From Escherichia coli (lineage in GTDB: Bacteria > Pseudomonadota > Gammaproteobacteria > Enterobacterales > Enterobacteriaceae): a DNA stretch of 64,000 bases. A program made the translations under genes and the position numbers. Shown piece by piece: positions 26,994 through 35,808 of the stretch. The stretch lies in NCBI RefSeq assembly GCF_003334405.1, contig NZ_QOWM01000002.1; one strand, given 5' to 3'. The notes under the pieces are model-generated. The model had not been told where the DNA came from. It was given only the letters and a program-made list of their open reading frames with translations, and did not search any database. How positions within the stretch are numbered: the stretch's first letter is position 1; every line of letters begins with the position of its first letter.

Positions 26994-27311
26994 TTTTTAA
27001 CCTCAAGGTGAGACGTTTGCCGACTATAGTACGTCACAGAGCGGTACGGTGAAATTAGCAAAATGTGCAAAGTCTTTTGCAAATTTAGCAAAAGTCTGAT
27101 CTTACTCTGACTCACCGATGCAGGATAAATATTTTCTGAAAATGACAATACTGATAGCCATTCCTCATAATTCTTACTCGCACCGGAATAATTTACACGT
27201 TTGGTTCGGTTTTTTTGGGGATTGAAAATATGGCTTTGAATAAGTAAAAGATGAAAGTATCAACGTGTCATGTTGATAATTATAAATGGATTTTTATGAG
27301 CGTACTGATAT

Positions 27312-30291: not shown

Positions 30292-30774
30292 ATGACAAAC
30301 CTGACACTGGATGTAAACATTATCGATTTCCCATCAATACCTGTGGCGATGTTGCCGCACCGCTGTAGCCCTGAATTGCTCAACTACAGCGTGGCGAAAT
30401 TTATCATGTGGCGTAAAGAGACGGGGCTTTCTCCTGTTAACCAAAGCCAGACTTTTGGCGTCGCCTGGGACGACCCTGCCACCACCGCACCGGAAGCGTT
30501 TCGCTTTGATATCTGCGGCAGCGTTAGCGAACCGATTCCCGATAATCGTTATGGTGTGAGCAATGGTGAACTTACCGGTGGACGTTATGCCGTGGCCCGC
30601 CACGTTGGCGAGCTGGACGATATTTCACACACGGTATGGGGCATCATTCGCCACTGGCTGCCTGCAAGCGGCGAGAAAATGCGTAAAGCACCGATTCTGT
30701 TTCACTACACCAATCTTGCCGAAGGGGTGACAGAGCAGCGACTGGAAACGGATGTTTATGTGCCGTTGGCGTGA
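30292..30774 (+). CDS. ygiV: GyrI-like / AraC effector-binding-domain protein YgiV
   Basis: 160-aa ORF with AGGGAGG RBS. Confidence 0.8.
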   Translation: MTNLTLDVNIIDFPSIPVAMLPHRCSPELLNYSVAKFIMWRKETGLSPVNQSQTFGVAWDDPATTAPEAFRFDICGSVSEPIPDNRYGVSNGELTGGRYAVARHVGELDDISHTVWGIIRHWLPASGEKMRKAPILFHYTNLAEGVTEQRLETDVYVPLA

Positions 30775-30904
30775 TGCCTGACTCCAGCTTCCCTTATAAA
30801 TTCCTGCTTCAAACTGGCGCTACTAATGCGCCACTTTCTTATATGGTCAATCACTTTCCTTAAAGAATACGTTTTGTGTGGTCACTATCTCCGTACATCT
30901 AACT

Positions 30905-30950
30905 AACCTTTTAGGTGCTTTTTCATTGCTGTAATTAACCTTTTAGGTTA
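30905..30950 (+). promoter_or_regulatory. Two MqsA operator palindromes in the mqsRA promoter
   Basis: taACCTtttAGGTg (30905-30918) and taACCTtttAGGTta (30936-30950), matching the ACCT-N-AGGT MqsA site as recalled. Confidence 0.8.
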
Positions 30951-30978
30951 TAACTAAAGTAACAGGGAGGCGGGGGTT

Positions 30979-31275
30979 ATGGAAAAACGCACACCACATA
31001 CACGTTTGAGTCAGGTTAAAAAACTTGTCAATGCCGGGCAAGTTCGTACAACACGTAGTGCCCTGTTAAATGCAGATGAGTTAGGTTTGGATTTTGATGG
31101 TATGTGTAATGTTATCATTGGATTATCAGAGAGCGACTTTTATAAAAGCATGACCACCTACTCTGATCATACTATCTGGCAGGATGTTTACAGACCCAGG
31201 CTTGTTACAGGCCAGGTTTATCTTAAAATTACGGTAATTCATGACGTACTGATCGTCTCGTTTAAGGAGAAGTAA
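30979..31275 (+). CDS. mqsR: Type II toxin MqsR (mRNA interferase)
   Basis: 98-aa ORF MEKRTPHTRLSQVKKLVNAGQVRTTRSALLNADELGLDF... Confidence 0.95.
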   Translation: MEKRTPHTRLSQVKKLVNAGQVRTTRSALLNADELGLDFDGMCNVIIGLSESDFYKSMTTYSDHTIWQDVYRPRLVTGQVYLKITVIHDVLIVSFKEK

Positions 31276-31276
31276 T

Positions 31277-31672
31277 ATGAAATGTCCGGTTTGCCACCAG
31301 GGAGAAATGGTTTCTGGCATTAAAGATATTCCATACACCTTCCGTGGACGAAAAACAGTATTGAAAGGTATCCACGGTTTATATTGTGTCCATTGCGAAG
31401 AGAGCATCATGAATAAAGAAGAGTCAGATGCTTTCATGGCGCAAGTAAAGGCATTTCGGGCTTCGGTGAATGCCGAAACAGTGGCACCTGAATTTATAGT
31501 GAAGGTTCGAAAAAAGCTCTCTCTTACCCAAAAAGAGGCAAGCGAAATTTTTGGGGGAGGTGTAAATGCGTTTTCGCGTTACGAAAAAGGCAATGCCCAA
31601 CCTCATCCTTCCACAATCAAACTTTTACGTGTTCTGGATAAGCATCCAGAACTATTGAATGAAATCCGTTAA
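31277..31672 (+). CDS. mqsA: Antitoxin and transcriptional regulator MqsA (Zn-binding N-domain + Xre HTH)
   Basis: 131-aa ORF MKCPVCHQGEMVSG...CVHCEES... with two CxxC pairs; 1-bp gap after mqsR. Confidence 0.95.
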   Translation: MKCPVCHQGEMVSGIKDIPYTFRGRKTVLKGIHGLYCVHCEESIMNKEESDAFMAQVKAFRASVNAETVAPEFIVKVRKKLSLTQKEASEIFGGGVNAFSRYEKGNAQPHPSTIKLLRVLDKHPELLNEIR

Positions 31673-31804
31673 TTAATGGAAAAGCGGGGGCAACTCGCTT
31701 TTTTCTTTACCGGAGTGTGAGCCAAATCACTCGCGATAAGTTTGAGCGAACAATGCCACAGGCGTATTGTTGTTGGGCTTATAATTTCTCCGGTAAGGAA
31801 TACC

Positions 31805-33412
31805 ATGTATACGCGAAATTTATTATGGCTGGTCAGCCTGGTAAGTGCGGCTCCTCTCTACGCTGCTGACGTTCCCGCCAACACACCGCTCGCCCCGCAA
31901 CAAGTCTTTCGTTACAACAATCATAGCGACCCAGGTACGCTCGACCCGCAAAAGGTGGAGGAGAATACTGCCGCGCAGATTGTGCTGGATCTGTTTGAAG
32001 GTCTGGTATGGATGGACGGTGAAGGCCAGGTGCAGCCCGCTCAGGCTGAACGCTGGGAGATACTGGACGGCGGCAAGCGCTATATTTTCCATCTGCGTAG
32101 CGGTTTGCAGTGGTCCGACGGTCAGCCTCTGACGGCAGAGGATTTTGTCCTCGGCTGGCAGCGCGCGGTTGACCCGAAAACGGCAAGCCCTTTTGCTGGC
32201 TATCTGGCACAGGCGCACATTAACAATGCCGCAGCTATTGTTGCGGGTAAAGCAGATGTTACATCGCTGGGTGTCAAAGCGACGGATGATCGTACTCTTG
32301 AAGTTACGCTTGAGCAGCCGGTTCCTTGGTTCACGACGATGCTCGCCTGGCCGACGCTGTTCCCGGTTCCTCATCATGTCATCGCTAAACATGGCGATAG
32401 CTGGAGTAAGCCAGAGAACATGGTTTACAACGGTGCCTTTGTGCTTGATCAGTGGGTAGTTAACGAAAAGATTACTGCACGCAAAAATCCAAAGTACCGC
32501 GATGCGCAACATACAGTATTGCAACAGGTTGAGTATCTGGCGCTAGATAATTCGGTCACCGGCTATAACCGCTATCGCGCGGGAGAGGTCGATCTCACCT
32601 GGGTTCCGGCGCAGCAAATTCCCGCCATTGAAAAATCACTGCCTGGCGAGCTACGAATTATTCCGCGTCTGAACAGCGAATATTACAACTTCAACCTTGA
32701 GAAACCGCCATTTAACGATGTGCGAGTGCGTCGGGCGCTATATCTTACGGTTGATCGACAGCTTATTGCGCAAAAGGTACTGGGGTTGAGAACGCCCGCA
32801 ACCACGCTGACGCCGCCAGAGGTAAAAGGCTTTAGCGCGACGACGTTCGATGAACTGCAAAAGCCAATGAGTGAGCGCGTCGCGATGGCAAAAGCCTTGC
32901 TGAAACAGGCGGGATACGACGCCTCTCATCCGCTACGCTTTGAGCTGTTCTACAACAAGTACGATCTGCATGAAAAGACCGCGATAGCGTTGTCTTCCGA
33001 ATGGAAAAAATGGCTGGGTGCACAGGTGACGCTGCGCACAATGGAGTGGAAAACCTATCTTGATGCCCGACGAGCCGGTGATTTCATGCTGTCTCGGCAG
33101 TCGTGGGATGCGACGTACAATGATGCTTCCAGCTTCCTGAACACGCTCAAAAGCGATAGTGAAGAAAACGTCGGTCACTGGAAAAATGCGCAGTATGACG
33201 CCTTACTAAACCAGGCCACGCAGATCACTGATGCGACAAAGCGTAATGCGTTGTATCAGCAGGCAGAAGTGATCATCAACCAACAGGCACCGCTGATTCC
33301 TATCTACTATCAGCCGTTAATCAAACTGCTTAAACCCTACGTTGGCGGTTTTCCGCTGCATAATCCCCAGGATTATGTCTACAGCAAAGAGTTGTATATC
33401 AAGGCACATTGA
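31805..33412 (+). CDS. ygiS: Periplasmic solute-binding protein (family 5, OppA-like) YgiS
   Basis: 535-aa ORF from ATG 31805, signal peptide MYTRNLLWLVSLVSAAPLYA; no cognate permease or ATPase genes adjacent. Confidence 0.85.
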   Translation: MYTRNLLWLVSLVSAAPLYAADVPANTPLAPQQVFRYNNHSDPGTLDPQKVEENTAAQIVLDLFEGLVWMDGEGQVQPAQAERWEILDGGKRYIFHLRSGLQWSDGQPLTAEDFVLGWQRAVDPKTASPFAGYLAQAHINNAAAIVAGKADVTSLGVKATDDRTLEVTLEQPVPWFTTMLAWPTLFPVPHHVIAKHGDSWSKPENMVYNGAFVLDQWVVNEKITARKNPKYRDAQHTVLQQVEYLALDNSVTGYNRYRAGEVDLTWVPAQQIPAIEKSLPGELRIIPRLNSEYYNFNLEKPPFNDVRVRRALYLTVDRQLIAQKVLGLRTPATTLTPPEVKGFSATTFDELQKPMSERVAMAKALLKQAGYDASHPLRFELFYNKYDLHEKTAIALSSEWKKWLGAQVTLRTMEWKTYLDARRAGDFMLSRQSWDATYNDASSFLNTLKSDSEENVGHWKNAQYDALLNQATQITDATKRNALYQQAEVIINQQAPLIPIYYQPLIKLLKPYVGGFPLHNPQDYVYSKELYIKAH

Positions 33413-33549: not shown

Positions 33550-35808
33550 ATGAGCGATATGGCAGAGCGCCTTGCGCTACATGAATTTACGGAAAACGCC
33601 TACTTAAACTACTCCATGTACGTGATCATGGACCGTGCGTTGCCGTTTATTGGTGATGGTCTGAAACCTGTTCAGCGCCGCATTGTGTATGCGATGTCTG
33701 AACTGGGCCTGAATGCCAGCGCCAAATTTAAAAAATCGGCCCGTACCGTCGGTGACGTACTGGGTAAATACCATCCGCACGGCGATAGCGCCTGTTATGA
33801 AGCGATGGTCCTGATGGCGCAACCGTTCTCTTACCGTTATCCGCTGGTTGATGGTCAGGGGAACTGGGGCGCGCCGGACGATCCGAAATCGTTCGCGGCA
33901 ATGCGTTACACCGAATCCCGGTTGTCGAAATATTCCGAGCTGCTATTGAGCGAGCTGGGGCAGGGGACGGCTGACTGGGTGCCAAACTTCGACGGCACTT
34001 TGCAGGAGCCGAAAATGCTACCTGCCCGTCTGCCAAACATTTTGCTTAACGGCACCACCGGTATTGCCGTCGGCATGGCGACCGATATTCCACCGCATAA
34101 CCTGCGTGAAGTGGCTCAGGCGGCAATCGCATTAATCGACCAGCCGAAAACCACGCTCGATCAGCTGCTGGATATCGTGCAGGGGCCGGATTATCCGACT
34201 GAAGCGGAAATTATCACTTCGCGCGCCGAGATCCGTAAAATCTACGAGAACGGACGTGGTTCAGTGCGTATGCGCGCGGTGTGGAAGAAAGAAGATGGCG
34301 CGGTGGTTATCAGCGCATTGCCGCATCAGGTTTCAGGTGCGCGCGTACTGGAGCAAATTGCTGCGCAAATGCGCAACAAAAAGCTGCCGATGGTTGACGA
34401 TCTGCGCGATGAATCTGACCACGAGAACCCGACCCGCCTGGTGATTGTGCCGCGTTCCAACCGCGTGGATATGGATCAGGTGATGAACCACCTCTTCGCT
34501 ACCACCGATCTGGAAAAGAGCTATCGTATTAACCTTAATATGATCGGTCTGGATGGTCGTCCGGCGGTGAAAAACCTGCTGGAAATCCTCTCCGAATGGC
34601 TGGTGTTCCGCCGCGATACCGTGCGCCGCCGACTGAACTATCGTCTGGAGAAAGTCCTCAAGCGCCTGCATATCCTCGAAGGTTTGCTGGTGGCGTTTCT
34701 CAATATCGACGAAGTGATTGAGATCATTCGTAATGAAGATGAACCGAAACCGGCGCTGATGTCGCGGTTTGGCCTTACGGAAACCCAGGCGGAAGCGATC
34801 CTCGAACTGAAACTGCGTCATCTTGCCAAACTGGAAGAGATGAAGATTCGCGGTGAGCAGAGTGAACTGGAAAAAGAGCGCGACCAGTTGCAGGGCATTT
34901 TGGCTTCCGAGCGTAAAATGAATAACCTGCTGAAGAAAGAACTGCAGGCAGACGCGCAAGCCTACGGTGACGATCGTCGTTCGCCGTTGCAGGAACGCGA
35001 AGAAGCGAAAGCGATGAGCGAGCACGACATGCTGCCGTCTGAACCTGTCACCATTGTGCTGTCGCAGATGGGCTGGGTACGCAGCGCTAAAGGCCATGAT
35101 ATCGACGCGCCGGGCCTGAATTATAAAGCGGGTGATAGCTTCAAAGCGGCGGTGAAAGGTAAGAGCAACCAACCGGTAGTGTTTGTTGATTCCACCGGTC
35201 GTAGCTATGCCATTGACCCGATTACGCTGCCGTCGGCGCGTGGTCAGGGCGAGCCGCTCACCGGCAAATTAACGTTGCCGCCTGGGGCGACCGTTGACCA
35301 TATGCTGATGGAAAGCGACGATCAGAAACTGCTGATGGCTTCCGATGCGGGTTACGGTTTCGTCTGCACCTTTAACGATCTGGTGGCGCGTAACCGTGCA
35401 GGTAAGGCTTTGATCACCTTACCGGAAAATGCCCATGTTATGCCGCCGGTGGTGATTGAAGATGCTTCCGATATGCTGCTGGCAATCACTCAGGCAGGCC
35501 GTATGTTGATGTTCCCGGTAAGTGATCTGCCGCAGCTGTCGAAGGGCAAAGGCAACAAGATTATCAACATTCCATCGGCAGAAGCCGCGCGTGGAGAAGA
35601 TGGTCTGGCGCAATTGTACGTTCTGCCGCCGCAAAGCACGCTGACCATTCATGTTGGGAAACGCAAAATTAAACTGCGCCCGGAAGAGTTACAGAAAGTC
35701 ACTGGCGAACGTGGACGCCGCGGTACGTTGATGCGCGGTTTGCAGCGTATCGATCGTGTTGAGATCGACTCTCCTCGCCGTGCCAGCAGCGGTGATAGCG
35801 AAGAGTAA
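33550..35808 (+). CDS. parC: DNA topoisomerase IV subunit A
   Basis: 752-aa ORF; GyrA-like N-terminus incl. catalytic-Tyr region (AAMRYTE). Confidence 0.95.

Follow-up and report, generated by a model that had tools for sequence, protein, structure and literature searches.

The 64-kb stretch of Escherichia coli DNA analyzed here (hereafter the window) carries an intact mqsR toxin gene and an intact mqsA antitoxin gene, located between ygiV and ygiS. The genes of this region that are relevant to our analysis are the following:

30292-30774, plus strand: ygiV
30979-31275, plus strand: mqsR, an intact ORF encoding a GCU-specific endoribonuclease toxin of 98 amino acids
31277-31672, plus strand: mqsA, encoding a 131 amino acid antitoxin and autorepressor with an N-terminal zinc domain and a C-terminal helix-turn-helix (HTH) domain
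31805-33412, plus strand: ygiS, encoding a 535 amino acid orphan periplasmic solute-binding protein of family 5
33550-35808, plus strand: parC, the next gene after ygiS

On the 5' side, qseB and qseC are encoded on the opposite strand, with ygiW (plus strand) located between qseB and ygiV.

The operon has a toxin-first organization in which mqsA directly follows mqsR, with a single base (31276) between the mqsR stop codon and the mqsA start codon. The MqsR protein matches Pfam family PF15723 over the full length of the model (6.1e-35, model positions 1-95 of 95) and chain B of PDB entry 3HI2 over residues 1-98 (1.8e-62). Inactivating substitutions in mqsR were looked for by alignment. The residues K56, Q68, Y81, and K96, which Brown and colleagues in 2009 reportedly found to be required for toxicity, are all present and are invariant among 27 aligned family members, indicating that the toxin gene is intact. 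MqsA matches Pfam family PF15731 (8e-56, spanning residues 1-131) and scores above the cut-offs of TIGR03830 (146.7 vs. 61.8 bits) and of the zinc finger model TIGR03831 (43.7 vs. 20.2). Its translation contains two CxxC pairs (C3/C6 and C37/C40) and an HTH_3 match at residues 76-117, and the protein matches PDB entries 3GN5, 3O9X, 2KZ8, 3GA8, and 3FMY. RefSeq annotation names the two genes mqsR and mqsA.

These results bear out a preliminary description of this DNA, made from the sequence alone, which had recognized an mqsRA pair with a duplicated operator. The identification is upheld by the PF15723, PF15731, and above-cut-off TIGR03830 matches, by the PDB matches, and by 100% DNA identity to MG1655, and the ORFs and their translations agree with the lengths, the 1-bp gap, the CxxC pairs, and the HTH domain given there. 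The locus is therefore the well-studied, already known type II toxin-antitoxin pair MqsR/MqsA of E. coli K-12 (YgiU/YgiT, b3022/b3021), with the same proteins, the same operators, and no differences from that system. [quoted passage not shown] HigB/HigA and other toxin-first HTH-Xre modules share with mqsRA the reversed gene order, a RelE-like RNase fold, and autorepression at palindromes, and the C-terminal domain of MqsA has a weak match to HigA-2 (PDB 5JAA; E = 4.6e-4). Unlike HigB/HigA, the MqsRA system has a toxin-binding N-terminal zinc domain that is unique to MqsA, together with a toxin that is ribosome-independent and GCU-specific (PMC4803016). It should be noted that the operon itself has one GCU site in mqsR and three in mqsA (3.5 and 4.5, respectively, are predicted from base composition), a depletion that is not significant.

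Operators and promoters of mqsRA in the window and across the family

The regulatory elements located upstream of and within mqsR are the following:

30905-30917, plus strand: operator palindrome 1, AACCT TTT AGGTg, just 5' of the -35 hexamer, a published MqsA site (PMC4894380)
30926-30931, plus strand: putative -35 hexamer TTGCTG of the operon promoter pRA
30936-30950, plus strand: operator palindrome 2, TAACCT TTT AGGTTA, in the promoter spacer and overlapping the -10 hexamer by two bases, also a published MqsA site (PMC4894380)
30949-30954, plus strand: putative -10 hexamer TATAAC of pRA
30964-30970, plus strand: Shine-Dalgarno sequence AGGGAGG of mqsR, 8 nt 5' of the ATG
31113-31118, plus strand: TATCAT, probable -10 hexamer of the internal promoter pA2, placed from published spacings (PMC6918082) and a promoter scan
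31202-31229, plus strand: TTGTTA-16-TAAAAT, a sigma-70-like element found by the promoter scan, probably the internal promoter pA1

The core operator motif ACCTTTTAGGT is present at 30906-30916 and 30938-30948, within the extended palindromes AACCTTTTAGGTG (30905-30917) and TAACCTTTTAGGTTA (30936-30950). The two ACCT-TTT-AGGT palindromes thus lie where the preliminary description had placed them, with a spacing of 32 bp, both start-to-start and center-to-center, instead of the "about 31 bp" given there. A search for further ACCT-N2-4-AGGT palindromes, which that description had proposed, returned one more site in the window, at 27000-27009 near mdaB. Taken alone, the resulting count of three matches in 64 kb is not significant (1.36 expected; 15 of 100 shuffles reach three). 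The identical pair of 12-mers AACCTTTTAGGT, 32 bp apart and directly 5' of mqsR, is a non-chance arrangement. Moreover, among 78 loci of mqsR homologues from other species, the exact motif occurs at 1.8 per kb within the first 200 bp 5' of the gene vs. 0.043 per kb in the rest of the loci, an enrichment of approximately 40-fold. The paired 12-mers and this enrichment indicate that the palindromes are real functional elements. No MqsA-type palindrome was found upstream of ygiS when the whole window was searched for ACCT-N2-4-AGGT and for AACCTTTTAGGT with up to two mismatches.

The operators and this core finding are already in the literature. The two palindromes have been described as MqsA binding sites in two copies, with EMSA evidence of binding for this exact sequence (PMC4894380), and reporter fusions have shown repression for the same sequence from pRA, a weak and autorepressed promoter (Fraikin et al., 2019; PMC6918082). 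According to work cited in PMC6918082, MqsR relieves the binding of MqsA to DNA and has no co-repressor role. The structure of MqsA on the promoter is credited to Brown et al. (2011) in the citation given by PMC4803016, and PDB entry 3O9X fits this attribution.

A simple promoter scan of the sequence did not call pRA, since its -35 hexamer matches the consensus at only three of six positions. We infer the arrangement of operators, -35, and -10 in pRA from the promoter register that is kept across approximately 70 homologous loci: TTGCTG occupies the position of TTGCCA, which precedes a 17-nt spacer in the class I promoters defined below (53 of 62), and TATAAC begins at the final T of the AGGTT arm, as does the TAnnnT of 60 of 62 class I promoters and of other enteric loci. 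With palindrome 2 placed between the two hexamers and sharing bases with the -10 element (TATAAC, 30949-54), MqsA bound at this site would occlude the promoter and block RNA polymerase. Palindrome 1, three helical turns upstream and just before the -35 hexamer, would recruit a second MqsA dimer to the same DNA face, and this second dimer would tighten repression.

Two constitutive promoters inside mqsR, pA1 and pA2, have been reported to drive mqsA (Fraikin et al., 2019; PMC6918082). A sigma-70 site was predicted there within the mqsR ORF, with the transcription start 8 nt downstream; each start lies 8 nt past its promoter, and transcription from pA2 begins 111 nt 5' of that from pA1 (PMC6918082). 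With these spacings, transcription from pA1 would begin near 31237, and that from pA2 near 31126, immediately past TATCAT. As both starts land at matching elements, the published layout appears to fit the window cleanly. Promoters pA1 and pA2 thus provide additional antitoxin, with pA1 driving mqsA independently of mqsR.

A comparable operon has been described in Pseudomonas putida KT2440 (PP_4205/PP_4204), which has the same toxin-first order and the same ACCT-N3-AGGT half-sites, and in which MqsR, as in E. coli, keeps MqsA off the DNA with no co-repression (PMC5422877). The two operons differ in that P. putida has a single palindrome near the start codon, whereas E. coli has two (PMC5422877). 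To place this difference in the family, we aligned upstream regions of mqsR homologues, anchoring each at its palindrome closest to the start codon. A match to AACCTNNNAGGTT with at most two mismatches was present in 70 of 79 upstream regions, so that the palindrome at the position of operator 2 is kept in 70 of 79 homologue promoters. The single-operator layout of P. putida is common to 62 of 70 scorable loci, while two palindromes are found in E. coli and six further members of the Enterobacterales. We accordingly distinguished class I (62 loci) from class II (seven Enterobacterales loci, including the window).

Class I promoters have the consensus taAcC.a.TTGCcAAaattAACCaA.TAGGTTAat.T. A -35 element of the form TTGnnn (mostly TTGCCA) is located 16-18 nt (mostly 17) before the -10 element in 53 loci, and the spacer is occupied by the palindrome. 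In 60 loci, the -10 element TAnnnT starts from the final T of AGGTT, and in 51 loci a distance of 6-8 nt separates its end from the ATG. Shine-Dalgarno-like motifs are present in only eight of 79 leaders, four of which are enteric (the window, L007, L011, and L033). The MEK N-terminus of MqsR is conserved in the family alignment (E2 and K3 are invariant, and M1 is found in at least 90% of the sequences), which makes the annotated mqsR start codons reliable. Taking into account the position of the -10 element, the near absence of Shine-Dalgarno motifs, and the reliable start codons, a leaderless mqsR mRNA is predicted for class I.

Class II consists of the window and loci of Symbiopectobacterium, Sodalis, Brenneria, Yersinia, Serratia, and Rouxiella. 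Its members share with class I the core register of -35, palindrome, and -10. All seven loci carry a second full palindrome 30-34 bp upstream, the distance from the -10 element to the ATG is 24-34 nt, and a Shine-Dalgarno-like motif is present in four of the seven. Judged from these alignments, the two-operator, Shine-Dalgarno-led mqsRA promoter is predicted to be specific to Enterobacterales, and most family members are predicted to combine one operator with a leaderless mqsR. It is possible, although we hold this only tentatively and at somewhat less than even confidence, that the E. coli promoter is an Enterobacterales-specific derivative of the one-operator leaderless layout. As far as our searches of the literature show, this family-wide promoter pattern and the leaderless prediction have apparently not been described.

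The 927-bp mqsRA cassette

Alignment of the window to E. coli genomes that lack mqsRA delimited an accessory segment that contains the whole operon:

30777-31703, plus strand: mqsRA accessory cassette, 927 bp, with boundaries that are uncertain by a few bases
30815-30833, plus strand: GC-rich hairpin at the left cassette end, 3' of the ygiV stop codon (terminator scan; -10.9 kcal/mol, z = -3.3)
31678-31708, plus strand: intrinsic terminator of mqsRA, with an 11-bp stem, a 5-nt loop, and a U-run (-12.8 kcal/mol, z = -3.55)

The contents of the cassette are self-contained, comprising the left hairpin, the promoter with its operators, the two genes, and the terminator. The left hairpin resembles a terminator and may shield the cassette from read-through from ygiV. 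An Rfam scan of positions 30700-31900 gave zero matches.

Among 5426 complete E. coli genomes, 2299 (42%) carry the cassette and 58% lack it. It is always chromosomal, at a median of one place per genome, and every copy examined lies between ygiV and ygiS; genomes that lack it have "GGGAA" in place of the stretch from just past the ygiV stop codon to 31703. Two E. coli copies filed under plasmids (H53 and H54) were set aside as chromosomal sequence, given that one is a 4.9-Mb record and the other carries parC, plsC, and ftsP. The cassette DNA of the window is 100% identical to that of MG1655 and many other strains, and identity across the 2299 copies is at least 99%, in contrast to 95-100% for ygiS. 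Its GC content is 41%, vs. 51% for the window and 51-53% for the flanks (52-53% for the flanking genes).

Outside E. coli, the nearest MqsR proteins are only 68-75% identical. These nearest sources are Pluralibacter, Brenneria, Erwinia, Rahnella, and Yersinia, and also Pseudomonas, Betaproteobacteria, and Acidobacteria. Homologues of MqsR are encoded on 73 plasmids, 30 of them conjugative, and none was found in 50,697 phage records searched for a phage origin. The cassette ends were inspected for marks of mobility and showed no target-site duplication, terminal repeats, or recombinase, with short matches at chance level only.

The surroundings of ygiS also bear on the history of the locus. In what is roughly a sister-genus relative (75-86% nucleotide identity), the gene order is qseCB-ygiW-ygiS-parC, without ygiV or mqsRA. 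YgiS orthologues with 83, 71, and 58% identity are likewise solitary, in three differing genomic contexts; of the two more distant ones, one adjoins a MarR gene and a MatE-family gene, and the other adjoins moa genes. Neither mqsRA nor permease genes were found beside YgiS orthologues of other enterics. The outgroup and orthologue contexts indicate that the ygiS-parC arrangement is older, that ygiS is consistently an orphan, and that mqsRA arrived later. From the base composition, the low diversity, and the sister-genus outgroup, we infer that the presence/absence pattern reflects an insertion rather than a deletion, and the most economical reading is that the cassette is accessory and was horizontally acquired. 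Taking the evidence together, we are very confident that the window carries the canonical K-12 MqsR/MqsA operon and that this operon resides on a compact cassette of 927 bp, acquired horizontally and inserted between ygiV and ygiS. Nothing in the sequence was found to speak against this identification.

Adjacency to ygiS and alternative functions of the locus

YgiS matches the NCBIfam equivalog PRK09755 with 1293 bits, and its 559 bits against the OppA model fall short of the cut-off of that model (947). Within several kb of ygiS, whose neighbors are mqsA and parC, there are no genes for an ABC permease or ATPase; compared with an importer operon of the Opp/Dpp type, ygiS has the family-5 binding protein and lacks the cognate permease and ATPase genes. 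The earlier characterization of ygiS as an orphan binding protein is thus correct. The same description had called the mqsRA-ygiS adjacency conserved and suggestive of functional coupling, and this is largely unsupported by the comparative data. Within the cassette-bearing 42% of E. coli the adjacency does hold, as the mqsA-ygiS junction is present in 2294 of 2299 such genomes. Full-length ygiS is present in 4053 E. coli genomes, and comparison with the 2294 junctions leaves approximately 1760 that have ygiS without mqsRA (for example, L002). Beyond E. coli, we analyzed 80 mqsRA loci with 6-kb flanks; mqsA follows mqsR in approximately 79 of the 80, and none encodes a YgiS or YgiV homologue within these flanks. 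The strong terminator at 31678-31708 ends the operon, so that ygiS would form a separate transcription unit. The ygiS gene is a neighbor of the toxin-antitoxin module and not part of it, and the position of the cassette most likely reflects a chance insertion site in an E. coli lineage.

One observation leans toward coupling, and it is the only one to do so. In approximately 1340 genomes ygiS is largely deleted, and as far as seen these have no mqsRA (for example, L003), while the 5' end of ygiS is kept in all but approximately five of the 2299 cassette genomes; the cassette is thus almost never found with a damaged ygiS. Single ancestral events on a clonal tree would give the same pattern. 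Selection might separately account for this co-occurrence of the cassette with an intact ygiS, a possibility to which we give the same tentative, somewhat less than even confidence as to the derived origin of the E. coli promoter.

A functional unit of mqsRA and ygiS, in which MqsR preferentially degrades ygiS mRNA, YgiS-dependent deoxycholate uptake is reduced, and the adjacency is selected, is a published proposal (summarized in PMC4963858 and PMC6918082). As PMC4963858 summarizes it, MqsR cleavage of the ygiS mRNA was reported to give tolerance to deoxycholate, a bile salt. The claim is disputed, as Fraikin et al. (2019) saw no influence of mqsRA on tolerance to deoxycholate, suggested that the original deletion might have been polar on ygiS, and pointed out that overexpression of MqsR raises ygiS transcript abundance (PMC6918082). 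In the window, ygiS is rich in GCU (43 sites or 26.7 per kb, ranking 40th among 43 long ORFs), but qseC has the same density and three other ORFs have a higher one, so that GCU content does not single out ygiS as a special MqsR target. The near-constant junction among cassette genomes and the near absence of the cassette from the ygiS-deleted genomes count in favor of this proposal, yet single events followed by clonal descent can account for both. Against it also stand the terminator between mqsA and ygiS, the lack of an operator before ygiS, the approximately 1760 genomes with ygiS alone, the YgiS orthologues of other enterics without mqsRA, and the 80 loci of other species without a YgiS homologue within 6 kb. 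The coupling idea is neither new nor backed by the comparative data, and we consider a functional unit unlikely. 

Two further proposals assign the locus a role beyond that of an autoregulated toxin-antitoxin pair. MqsA has been published to bind at csgD, rpoS, and cspD (PMC4894380, PMC4803016), and as a global regulator it would use the pRA operator as one of many functional ACCT-N2-3-AGGT sites (rpoS, csgD, cspD), with more in the window. The extra palindrome at 27000-27009, AACCTCAAGGTg, lies a few bases 5' of the mdaB start codon and could be counted in favor; however, its spacer is N2, it coincides in part with a GAGG ribosome-binding site on the mdaB strand, and the motif count of the window is at the chance level given above. 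With single-copy reporters and moderate MqsA, csgD, cspD, and rpoS were unregulated, and such sites were deemed to be of low affinity (Fraikin et al.; PMC6918082). We consider a global role improbable. Less probable still is that the cassette is an anti-phage defense module of the tripartite MqsR/MqsA/MqsC kind, even though toxin-antitoxin modules are often defense elements, the mqsRA cassette is accessory, and MqsRAC of E. coli C496_10 inhibits phage T2 (PMC10783111). The C496_10 system resembles that of the window in its MqsR-family RNase toxin and MqsA-family antitoxin and differs in its anti-T2 phenotype and in its third gene, which encodes a SecB-type chaperone (PMC10783111). In the window, mqsA is followed by the terminator and then by the family-5 binding protein gene, with no chaperone gene of the MqsC kind. 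The possibility that MqsC might be YgiS was discarded, as MqsC is the SecB-type chaperone from strain C496_10, and K-12 is without the tripartite system according to the same authors (PMC10783111). In the PADLOC search, MqsR was unmatched, MqsA had weak HTH matches only, and YgiS had no defense-system match; the absence of MqsR homologues from the phage records likewise speaks against a defense module. The canonical K-12 toxin-antitoxin operon on a horizontally acquired cassette remains our preferred reading.

These results show that mqsRA and ygiS are neighbors in only part of E. coli and that their adjacency is not a conserved property of this toxin-antitoxin family. Because it is not conserved, the adjacency offers no genomic-context evidence in favor of the disputed MqsR-YgiS bile-salt claim. 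The presence of the cassette at one site in 42% of E. coli genomes, and its absence from the rest, provides natural isogenic-like contrasts for testing the role, if any, of chromosomal mqsRA. If the promoter classes predicted here are correct, toxin synthesis in most mqsRA systems would be under leaderless translation and would differ in its response to stress and ribosome state, and the enteric lineage would have rewired transcription through a second operator and translation through a Shine-Dalgarno sequence.

Presence and absence of the mqsRA cassette in E. coli

Our analysis identified the 927-bp mqsRA cassette (window 30777-31703) in 2299 of 5426 complete E. coli genomes, with at least 99% identity in all 2299 and, in every copy examined, a location between ygiV and ygiS. 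The remaining complete genomes carry 'GGGAA' in its place; mqsRA in E. coli is a presence/absence polymorphism. A search of the cassette ends (30777-31703) for terminal repeats or a target duplication found none.

Two E. coli records filed as plasmids in PLSDB also contain mqsRA. NZ_CP141089.1 (H53) is 4.9 Mb in length, and NZ_MG591698.1 (H54, locus L084) has mqsRA flanked by qseBC, parC, plsC and ftsP. Given this size and these chromosomal neighbor genes, we rejected both as plasmids and regard them as chromosomal sequence, and they should not be taken to show that plasmids carry this mqsRA allele.

It should be noted that the sequence directly 3' of the mqsA stop codon (window 31671-31690, AATTAATGGAAAAGCGGGGG), which lies at the terminator and cassette end, is similar to the ribosome-binding-site/start region of mqsR (30957-30989, …AGGCGGGGGTTATGGAAAAACG). 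This likeness, which is probably due to chance, involves a pair of short direct repeats that overlap, one of 20 nt (70%) and one of 11 nt (91%).

Deletions, insertions and a predicted hairpin around ygiS

The ygiS gene is mostly deleted in approximately 1340 complete E. coli genomes, leaving its final 40-70 bp, and at least two different deletion end-points were seen. The ygiS 5' end is kept in all but at most ~5 of the 2299 cassette-bearing genomes, and therefore nearly all of the ygiS-deleted genomes are without mqsRA. In addition, natural IS1 insertions are present at the mqsRA-ygiS locus in four E. coli records. These features, together with a long predicted hairpin ahead of ygiS, are:

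Window ~31774/31827 to ~33370: ygiS deletion; 4070-4193 in L003, a ygiS-deleted E. coli locus
NZ_CP093317.1 (H1): IS1 in mqsR, annotated as two pieces
NZ_CP025913.1 (H13): IS1 in mqsR, annotated as two pieces
NZ_AP027474.1 (H38): IS1 inside ygiS
NZ_CM146015.1 (H78): IS1 inside the 701-bp stretch from the mqsA 3' end to the ygiS 5' end
Window 31703-31800: predicted hairpin bracketing the whole ygiV/mqsA-ygiS intergenic leader

The IS1-split mqsR genes of H1 and H13 would be natural toxin knock-outs.

The hairpin (-38.9 kcal/mol, z -3.8) has 13-nt arms, TTCTTTACCGGAG and CTCCGGTAAGGAA, plus further pairing, and had no match in Rfam. The start of its left arm coincides exactly with the right-hand end of the cassette, the Shine-Dalgarno sequence of ygiS falls in its right arm, and a perfect TATAAT lies within the hairpin at 31780-31785. 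The predicted structure might control ygiS translation.

Operators and promoter classes in the MqsRA family

Across the 64-kb window, the operator palindrome motif occurs at chance level. One further palindrome lies near mdaB:

Window 27000-27009: third palindrome, AACCTCAAGGTg, with an N2 spacer, 7-16 nt before the start codon of mdaB

This palindrome overlaps the GAGG ribosome-binding site of mdaB and has the N2 spacer in common with the reported csgD site.

Outside E. coli, in locus L085 (Logan SRR12713725 contig 62, 4490-6608), from a related enteric whose nucleotide identity to the window is 75-86%, ygiS comes directly after ygiW and ygiV is missing, and thus ygiV, too, may be a later arrival at this locus. 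In locus L043, from a Hydrogenophilales MAG, the best MqsA match (4571-4963) is located ~1 kb upstream of the fetched mqsR and not directly downstream, pointing to another MqsA-family gene, or another module, in the vicinity.

When the 120 bp upstream of mqsR were compared in loci L004-L083, the promoters of the MqsRA family fell into two classes. Class II, comprising the window and six other Enterobacterales loci, carries a pair of operators at a spacing of 30-34 bp, together with a leader that contains a Shine-Dalgarno sequence. Class I (62 loci) has one operator, placed between TTGCCA -35 and TAnnnT -10 elements. Since this -10 element ends 6-8 nt before the mqsR ATG and a Shine-Dalgarno sequence is absent, the class I toxin mRNA is predicted to be leaderless.
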